Shown here: positions 8,491 through 10,406 of the stretch, piece after piece
Layout of the letters: the number at the start of each line of letters is the position of its first letter
How positions within the stretch are numbered: position 1 is the first letter of the stretch
Assembly (NCBI RefSeq): GCF_003334335.1
Contig: NZ_QOWQ01000011.1
Length of the DNA stretch: 64,000 bases
Reading direction: 5' to 3' (one strand)
From: Escherichia coli
GTDB taxonomy: Bacteria; Pseudomonadota; Gammaproteobacteria; Enterobacterales; Enterobacteriaceae
Program-made: the position numbers and the translations under genes
Notes under the pieces: generated by a model
Told to the model about the DNA's origin: nothing
The model's database searches: none
What the model saw: the letters and a program-made list of their open reading frames with translations, nothing else

Positions 8491-9232
8491 TAAACAAGCC
8501 ATTGCAGCGGCATTTGGTCGGGCAGCCGCACACTATGAGCAACATGCAGATCTACAGCGCCAGAGTGCTGACGCCTTACTGGCAATGCTTCCACAGCGTA
8601 AATACACCCACGTACTGGACGCGGGTTGTGGACCTGGCTGGATGAGCCGCCACTGGCGGGAACGTCACGCGCAGGTGACGGCCTTAGATCTCTCGCCGCC
8701 AATGCTTGTTCAGGCACGCCAGAAGGATGCCGCAGACCATTATCTGGCGGGAGATATCGAATCCCTGCCGTTAGCGACTGCGACGTTCGATCTTGCATGG
8801 AGCAATCTCGCAGTGCAGTGGTGCGGTAATTTATCCACGGCACTCCGCGAGCTGTATCGGGTGGTGCGCCCCAAAGGCGTGGTCGCGTTTACCACGCTGG
8901 TGCAGGGATCGTTACCCGAACTGCATCAGGCGTGGCAGGCGGTGGACGAGCGTCCGCATGCTAATCGCTTTTTACCGCCAGATGAAATCGAACAGTCGCT
9001 GAACGGCGTGCATTATCAACATCATATTCAGCCCATCACGCTGTGGTTTGATGATGCGCTCAGTGCCATGCGTTCGCTGAAAGGCATCGGTGCCACGCAT
9101 CTTCATGAAGGGCGCGACCCGCGAATATTAACGCGTTCGCAGTTGCAGCGATTGCAACTGGCCTGGCCGCAACAGCAGGGGCGATATCCTCTGACGTATC
9201 ATCTTTTTTTGGGAGTGATTGCTCGTGAGTAA
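8477..9232 (+). CDS. bioC: Malonyl-ACP O-methyltransferase
   Basis: Start set at [17 protein letters not shown] (ATG 8477), overlapping the bioF 3' end. SAM methyltransferase motif DAGCGPG. Confidence 0.92.
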
Positions 9233-9902
9233 ACGTTATTTTGTCACCGGAACGGATACCGAAGTGGGGAAAACTGTCGCCAGTTGTGCACTTTTACAAG
9301 CCGCAAAGGCAGCAGGCTACCGGACGGCAGGTTATAAACCGGTCGCCTCTGGCAGCGAAAAGACCCCGGAAGGTTTACGCAATAGCGACGCGCTGGCGTT
9401 ACAGCGCAACAGCAGCCTGCAGCTGGATTACGCAACAGTAAATCCTTACACCTTCGCAGAACCCACTTCGCCGCACATCATCAGCGCGCAAGAGGGCAGA
9501 CCGATAGAATCATTGGTAATGAGCGCCGGATTACGCGCGCTTGAACAACAGGCTGACTGGGTGTTAGTGGAAGGTGCTGGCGGCTGGTTTACGCCGCTTT
9601 CTGACACTTTCACTTTTGCAGATTGGGTAACACAGGAACAACTGCCGGTGATACTGGTAGTTGGTGTGAAACTCGGCTGTATTAATCACGCGATGTTGAC
9701 TGCACAGGTAATACAACACGCCGGACTGACTCTGGCGGGTTGGGTGGCGAACGATGTTACGCCTCCGGGAAAACGTCACGCTGAATATATGACCACGCTC
9801 ACCCGCATGATTCCCGCGCCGCTGCTGGGAGAGATCCCCTGGCTTGCAGAAAATCCAGAAAATGCGGCAACCGGAAAGTACATAAACCTTGCCTTGTTGT
9901 AG
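9225..9902 (+). CDS. bioD: Dethiobiotin synthetase
   Basis: GTG start giving [17 protein letters not shown] (P-loop), overlapping the bioC 3' end. Confidence 0.9.
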
Positions 9903-9913
9903 CCATTCTGTAT

Positions 9914-9965
9914 TTGGTTAAATTGCGAGCGAGATCGCGTCTTCGATTGACTGCAATTTAACCAA
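9914..9965. terminator. Candidate bio operon terminator / long hairpin
   Basis: Perfect 13-bp inverted repeat TTGGTTAAATTGC ... GCAATTTAACCAA with a 26-nt spacer, starting 12 bp after the bioD stop. Confidence 0.35.
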
Positions 9966-10062
9966 TTAAATTCTAAAATAATCACGAAAAAAATTTTACT
10001 TCCGCCTCATGCGGCGAATGTGGGAATTGCCCAGGCGGCGGGGGATAGGGGCTGGAGACAGT

Positions 10063-10085
10063 TATCCACTATTCCTGTGGATAAC
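10063..10085. promoter_or_regulatory. Inverted pair of DnaA boxes upstream of uvrB
   Basis: TTATCCACT ... TGTGGATAA; the second is a perfect match to the DnaA box consensus TTATCCACA on the opposite strand. Confidence 0.55.
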
Positions 10086-10386
10086 CATGTGTATTAGAGT
10101 TAGAAAACACGAGGCAAGCGAGAGAATACGCGGCTTGCACGCGAATTGGCGTTAAAGACGGCTCAAAGAAATATCTTTTATTTTTTAACTGGTTAGATAA
10201 ATGCAATGGCAGTCACTGAACAGGCATCTCTTGCCATAAAACTGTCATCACTCATCTTGACAAATGTTAAAAAAGCCGTTGCTTTGGGGATAACCCGGTA
10301 AGGCCGGAGTTTTATCTCGCCACAGAGTAAATTTTGCTCATGATTGACAGCGGAGTTTACGCTGTATCAGAAATATTATGGTGATG

Positions 10387-10406
10387 AACTGTTTTTTTAT
10401 CCAGTA
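10387..10406 (+). promoter_or_regulatory. LexA (SOS) box of uvrB
   Basis: AACTGTTTTTTTATCCAGTA, of the form CTGT-N8-CCAG, about 75 bp upstream of the uvrB start. Confidence 0.8.

Follow-up and report, generated by a model that had tools for sequence, protein, structure and literature searches.

The inverted DnaA-box pair upstream of uvrB in Escherichia coli and its place in the DARS1 core

DARS1 is one of two chromosomal elements that regenerate ATP-DnaA, and it helps to time the initiation of replication in Escherichia coli. The element of E. coli K-12 was reportedly described by Fujimitsu, Senriuchi and Katayama in 2009. In published maps DARS1 spans 101 bp and lies upstream of uvrB, at 17.5 min or 0.81 Mb (PMC5742627; PMC11317965), and its core is defined as DnaA boxes I–III, with box I opposed to boxes II and III (PMC5742627). 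There, ADP is stripped from spent DnaA, and the resulting apo-DnaA leaves and then binds ATP (PMC5742627). Fragments of 70 bp (PMC6868365) and 101 bp (PMC5742627), both identical in sequence to the site analyzed here, release ADP from DnaA in vitro.

On the 70-bp fragment ADP-DnaA forms discrete complexes, and the consensus box II is thought to be the first that it occupies; from there a second protomer is brought to box I by head-to-head contact between AAA+ domains, and a third to box III by the normal head-to-tail contact (PMC6868365). Boxes I and II hold the protomers that release ADP, box III one that does not, and release needs Gln208, which lies at the modeled head-to-head interface and for whose dimer a 5-bp gap between boxes is suitable (PMC6868365). 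The reaction is stimulated by DiaA (PMC6868365). For the site in our window, this ADP-release mechanism would hold on the strength of the cited papers and the identity of the sequence.

In vivo, DARS1 contributes modestly: its deletion lowers the ori/mass ratio to ~0.8 with no asynchrony, and it costs fitness in LB competition and in mouse-gut colonization (PMC4585315). Deletion mutants also have less chromosome-bound DnaA, larger cells and fewer origins (PMC12371093), and oversupply of DARS1 and DARS2 stimulates initiation (PMC5742627). Swapping box I or box II, not box III, weakens the stimulation of initiation by DARS1 in vivo (PMC11724364). To this body of work we add a wider conservation survey (E. 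coli, the Enterobacterales, one Vibrionaceae genome and one Orbaceae genome) and two loose ends, i.e., a conserved non-consensus base and spacer within the core, and an offset between the core and the ChIP-seq peak assigned to it.

The box cluster and its identity

The window, a 64-kb stretch of E. coli DNA analyzed as a whole, carries in its bioD–uvrB spacer a pair of opposed DnaA boxes at 10062–10084 (TTATCCACT-ATTCC-TGTGGATAA), extended to 10096 by CCA-TGTGTATTA. A first-pass annotation of this DNA had located a real pair, with coordinates (10063–10085) that were one base too high, and had correctly described two 9-mers in opposite orientation with 5 bp between them. It had further put the pair ~400 bp before uvrB and ~300 bp before the LexA box, in agreement with the 397 bp that we measure from box II to the uvrB start (10481) and the 303 bp to the uvrB LexA box (10387–10406). 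It omitted a third box, TAATACACA, 3 bp past box II, and recognized neither DARS1 nor the 5-bp head-to-head arrangement as the mechanistically important feature. The features of the region, with boxes named according to the assignment argued below, are as follows.

9225–9902, + strand: bioD coding sequence (context; start as in the MG1655 annotation)
10062–10070, + strand: DARS1 DnaA box I, TTATCCACT, 8/9 to the consensus TTATCCACA
10071–10075, no strand: 5-bp spacer ATTCC between head-to-head boxes I and II
10076–10084, − strand: DARS1 DnaA box II, TTATCCACA, 9/9 to the consensus
10088–10096, − strand: DARS1 DnaA box III, TAATACACA, 7/9; reads TGTGTATTA on the + strand
10100–10141, no strand: flank of the DARS1 core, approximate extent, with motifs GAAAAC and CGAGAG..CGCGG (putative coordinate mapping)
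10285–10293, − strand: DnaA-like box TTATCCCCA between promoters P3 and P2, 8/9; kept across genera (0.80 column identity)
10387–10406, + strand: LexA box of uvrB P2, AACTGTTTTTTTATCCAGTA (sequence given in PMC6015884)
10481–12502, + strand: uvrB coding sequence (context)

Box III stands head-to-tail with box II across the 3-bp gap CCA. In the numbering used for the uvrB promoter, box I is DnaA-box7, the consensus box II is DnaA-box6 and box III is DnaA-box5 (PMC6015884). The published description of boxes I and II is likewise of opposite orientations with a “5-bp space” between them (PMC6868365), and boxes II and III together form the “double DnaA box” entered for DARS1 in a ChIP-seq compilation (Table 1 of PMC11317965). 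Box II is the sole occurrence of a perfect TTATNCACA within the 64-kb window. A further DnaA-like box (10397–10405, 7/9) overlaps the LexA box of uvrB P2.

A chance origin of the boxes was rejected on shuffling, on analytic expectation and on the conservation described below. Specifically, the I/II pair is the only one in the window with boxes of at most one mismatch lying at most 30 bp apart, and such a pair arose in 7% of dinucleotide shuffles (n = 300) when orientation was ignored and in 2.3% when the boxes had to converge. Analytically, a convergent pair at exactly 5 bp is expected 6e-4 times per window and 0.05 times per 4.6-Mb genome, and the triple with a third box at 3 bp ~1e-6 times per window. 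An open reading frame that runs across the boxes (10009–10155, + strand, 48 aa) was also set aside as a mechanical ORF: MG1655 annotates nothing between bioD and uvrB, and the sequence immediately 5′ of box I is free to diverge across genera, which counts against it.

The bioD–uvrB spacer is identical at 578/578 positions to that of MG1655 (NC_000913.3 812948–813525), and we therefore equate the boxes with the published DARS1 core; with NC_000913.3 coordinates equal to window coordinates plus 803045, boxes I–III fall at 813107–813141. Both the orientations of the boxes and their 5-bp and 3-bp gaps are those of the MG1655 DARS2 core, and the locus is that of DARS1, i.e., the bioD–uvrB spacer at 0.81 Mb with MG1655-identical sequence. 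The flank fits as well. In DARS1, 42 bp flanking the last DnaA box (bases 198–239) stimulate ADP release in vitro (PMC4585315); if numbering starts at the first base after the bioD stop, so that box III ends at base 194, we infer that these bases correspond to 10100–10141. A flank of ~42–50 bp beside box III is present here, identical to that of MG1655, and its motifs are kept across genera. It is thus almost certain that the inverted pair is boxes I and II of DARS1, with the core completed by box III 3 bp downstream. The element is already known and well characterized, and its biology was established between 2009 and 2025 on identical sequence, so our finding is the rediscovery of a textbook element.

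Conservation within and beyond the Enterobacterales

Within E. coli, 5,425 of 5,426 complete genomes match a 621-bp stretch that includes the site, between genes annotated bioD and uvrB, and the 43-bp core (10058–10100) is identical in 5,424 of the 5,426. Over the 61 bp from 10050 to 10110, a single-base difference is seen in about half of the E. coli genomes; two of these were examined, and both have the common SNP, a G-to-C change at 10055, 7 bp outside box I. Plasmid-labeled copies of DARS1 also occur, at two E. coli “plasmid” places and in 14 PLSDB records. The seven full-length E. coli matches in PLSDB include chromosome-sized records of 0.7–4.9 Mb, and the one Klebsiella record inspected carries a chromosomal bio-uvrB-pmrAB segment. 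Examples of plasmid-filed records with the chromosomal bio-uvrB region are NZ_OL790696.1 (4.8 Mb) and NZ_CP079601.1 (121 kb). Among the plasmid records examined there was no sign of a genuinely mobile DARS1, and we rejected plasmid-borne copies as what look like mislabeled or misassembled pieces of chromosome.

To follow the element beyond the species, uvrB loci were retrieved by a degenerate pattern inside uvrB (codons 11–21, FKP[SA]GDQPEAI) that is independent of the boxes, with one genome per species and at least 120 loci in all. Among the matches listed, 17 of the 18 Enterobacterales loci with enough upstream DNA have a convergent pair at exactly 5 bp followed by box III. They come from Escherichia, Citrobacter (3), Enterobacter, Cedecea, Serratia, Yersinia, Rahnella, Acerihabitans, Pectobacterium (2), Erwinia, Pantoea (2), Tatumella and Rosenbergiella. 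The same arrangement stands upstream of uvrB in Salinivibrio (Vibrionaceae) and in Ca. Schmidhempelia (Orbaceae). The pair with box III is absent from all 12 listed uvrB loci of Pseudomonas and Stutzerimonas, and the other 87 non-enteric loci listed gave a single weak, AT-rich and chance-like match.

The exception among the 18 is Pantoea sp. Nvir, a reduced-genome symbiont of the stink bug Nezara viridula. Here a remnant, GTATCTATT-GTTAC-TATGGATAA-TAT-AATGTAATG, agrees at 22/35 positions and lies ~200 bp upstream of the uvrB pattern in a spacer of 35% G+C. Such decay would accord with a loosened control of replication where the genome is reduced.

The position of the core is fixed relative to one neighbor. 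In six loci from Cedecea, Serratia, Yersinia, Pantoea and Erwinia, 1.3–2 kb separate bioD from the core, and yet the distance from the core to the uvrB ATG stays at ~410–545 bp (273 bp in Ca. Schmidhempelia); since the boxes keep their distance to uvrB despite insertions on the bioD side, the element is tied to uvrB rather than to bioD. The Klebsiella locus has two features between bioD and the core, a gene for an ABC ATP-binding protein and a small hypothetical ORF, and here too the distance to uvrB is kept.

When the 800 bp that precede the uvrB pattern are aligned across 19 species, 10062–10097 is the best-conserved upstream stretch, with a mean column identity of 0.86–0.94. The LexA box/P2 region (0.67–0.82) falls below the boxes, and the start of the uvrB coding sequence is comparable to them. 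Box II and the C that follows it (10076–10085) are invariant in all 19 species; box I is invariant at positions 1–8 in the 17 aligned Enterobacterales (the window and 16 others), and its position 9 carries T or C in all 17 instead of the consensus A. The spacer keeps its 5-bp length in every orthologue found, with ATTCC nearly invariant across the Enterobacterales, and box III retains its TGTG and AT core across genera.

The same alignment bears on a reading of the 9-bp inverted repeat as a hairpin, which would act either in DNA, as a cruciform, or as a terminator that stops transcripts running through from the bio operon. A consensus scan does present the repeat as terminator-like (a 9-pair stem, a 7-nt loop and a T-containing tail), and the single-stranded DNA has a predicted folding energy of −7.6 kcal/mol, with z = −3 relative to shuffles. 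Yet none of the nine stem pairs shows a compensatory change across the 19 species, and all six departures from the commonest pair break pairing; the pair just beyond the boxes, G10061–C10085, is itself broken in four species. Conservation instead follows the register of the DnaA boxes and continues past the stem into box III; only four of the nine stem pairs are G–C, and the tail, CATGTGTATT, is a poor U-tract. An Rfam search of the site returned no family match. Given the absent covariation and the absent Rfam match we rejected the hairpin, whose probability we regard as negligible, and retained the DARS1 assignment.

Elsewhere in the spacer, an inverted repeat with 16-nt arms (9911–9926, TATTTGGTTAAATTGC, and 9953–9968, GCAATTTAACCAATTA; 94% complementary, 26 nt between arms) begins 9 bp past the bioD stop. 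It is poorly conserved across genera (~0.45), gave a sub-threshold chance match to an Rfam miRNA model and, because it is A+T-rich, is not a typical intrinsic terminator. Conserved islands occur at 10116–10133 (AAGCGAGAGAATACGCGG, 0.75–0.79, within the DARS1 flank), at 10197–10205 (ATAAATGCA, 0.85) and at 10260–10268 (ACAAATGTT, 0.75), the last of which adjoins a perfect TTGACA at 10256–10261.

DnaA occupancy and the uvrB promoter P3

The first-pass annotation had suggested that the pair might serve a distal DnaA-regulated promoter, and the literature bears this out. Promoter P3 of uvrB “completely overlaps” DARS1, ATP-DnaA footprints DARS1 strongly, and a TG-to-CA change in the consensus box II (DnaA-box6) raises P3 activity 5.9-fold; LexA binds a weak site overlapping the boxes and also represses P3 (PMC6015884). 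DnaA on the same boxes that make up the DARS1 core would thus also repress this distal promoter. We infer that P3 would have its −10 region under box III and its −35 and spacer region under boxes I and II. Our simple sigma-70 consensus scan called no promoter at the boxes, P3 included, and the exact overlap of P3 with the boxes is therefore taken from the literature. An overlap with a promoter under the control of both LexA and DnaA links replication control with DNA repair.

Taken to its limit, this evidence would make the boxes a transcriptional operator and nothing else, with repression of P3 their whole purpose. The promoter overlap and the derepression on mutation of the consensus box speak for it (PMC6015884), as does the steady distance of the element from uvrB where bioD has been moved away. 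A repressor site, however, could do without a head-to-head box held at exactly 5 bp, and DnaA-bound operators are mostly head-to-tail doubles 2–3 bp apart (PMC11317965). Moreover, DARS2 repeats the I/II/III geometry without being a uvrB promoter, and the 70-bp fragment alone releases ADP in vitro while deletion of DARS1 alters initiation (PMC6868365; PMC4585315). An operator without further function is therefore very unlikely; operator function is better seen as a second role of DARS1 that coexists with the first than as its rival.

Occupancy by DnaA, which the first-pass annotation had named as the check on its proposal, is documented by DNase I footprinting (PMC6015884), by gel shifts (PMC6868365) and by a ChIP-seq peak 16x over control (PMC11317965), with the caveat that the called peak center lies ~200 bp downstream of the pair. 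The peak, labeled DARS1, is at 813331 (PMC11317965), which in NC_000913.3 coordinates is window position 10286, within the box TTATCCCCA at 10285–10293. By our mapping, the DARS2 peaks of the same kind lie ~30 bp from their boxes. Because of the ~200-bp displacement, occupancy of the core in vivo is less cleanly resolved than the footprint in vitro. The offset could come from peak calling at low enrichment or from real occupancy of the box at 10285–10293; this box has no partner at 2–3 bp. The footnote to the source table names NC_000913.2, while its values for oriC (3925806) and DARS2 fit NC_000913.3.

These observations invite a tentative proposal that we ourselves think improbable, namely that the core is constrained beyond the needs of three DnaA boxes (the non-consensus position 9 of box I, the near-invariant ATTCC) and that DARS1 in vivo may include the distal box at 10285–10293. 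Constraint of this kind on box I and the spacer would be in keeping with a head-to-head dimer that is tuned by its geometry and sub-optimal by design, or with a further protein that reads these bases, such as RNA polymerase at P3 or LexA. Part of it may be a known preference for the flank of box II, as many strong sites read TTATCCACAg (PMC11317965). The distal box might perhaps take part in functional DARS1 by looping, a role that the 101-bp in vitro definition would miss.

Comparison with DARS2, double DnaA boxes and datA

A paralogue of the cluster is the MG1655 DARS2 core, TTATTCACC-TTTTC-TGTGGATAG-AGT-TGTGAAGAA (NC_000913.3 2969135–2969169; positions 636–670 of our locus L002; rppH/ygdT–mutH spacer). 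As in the DARS1 core, boxes II and III share an orientation that box I opposes, the gaps measure 5 and 3 bp, and the two cores are identical at 24 of 35 positions in an ungapped hand count. Each box of the DARS2 core has one mismatch, whereas box II of DARS1 is perfect. DARS2 has a long regulatory arm with a box V, whereas DARS1 has a flank of ~42–50 bp and a promoter overlap. Finally, DARS2 requires IHF, Fis and negative supercoiling; DARS1 needs none of the three, is active by itself in vitro and gains nothing from supercoiling (PMC11724364).

A second cluster of DARS geometry, distinct from the DARS2 core, lies ~190 bp upstream of mutH (NC_000913.3 2969451–2969485; L002 952–986). It reads TTATCCCAG-CTTTC-TGTGGATAA-CAT-GGTGTAAGA, with a perfect box II, and its flanks ACAGTTATCC and CTGTGGATAAC are identical to flanks of DARS1. 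It falls under the strongest “DARS2” ChIP-seq peak (2969501, 213x; PMC11317965). In the DARS literature examined we did not find this cluster named as a core.

Boxes II and III of DARS1 belong to the same class as the double DnaA boxes found at promoters (nrdA, polA, purH, mioC and dnaA), with the same orientation, a 3-bp gap and repression of the promoter (PMC11317965). Box I, which faces box II across 5 bp, falls outside the double-box class and is specific to DARS cores.

Like DARS1, the datA locus is a group of DnaA boxes in non-coding DNA through which the amount of active DnaA is adjusted. The two work in opposite directions, however: datA needs an IHF site and promotes ATP hydrolysis, and its deletion leads to over-initiation (PMC4585315; PMC12371093; PMC5742627), whereas DARS1 promotes ADP release and its deletion leads to under-initiation. 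This contrast decides a further suggestion of the first-pass annotation, that the pair is a DnaA titration site, i.e., a datA-like sink that lowers free or active DnaA. A perfect box would suit a sink: box II is of high affinity, the site is bound by DnaA, and a 2025 study that counts the DARS1 boxes among the chromosomal DnaA binding sites speaks of losing DARS1, DARS2 and, above all, datA “as titration loci” (PMC12371093). Against it, three boxes could hold just a few of the cell's DnaA molecules. Cells that lack DARS1, moreover, are larger, have fewer origins per mass and show raised dnaA promoter activity, and deletion of datA has the reverse effects (PMC4585315; PMC12371093). The titration reading fails because the deletion phenotype has the wrong sign; it is not the accepted function of the element, and we consider it extremely unlikely to explain the pair.

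Regeneration of ATP-DnaA by DARS1 thus remains the reading that we adopt. Compared with DARS1 of E. coli K-12, the site in the window differs in no respect: the locus is the same, and boxes, gaps, flank and position all match.
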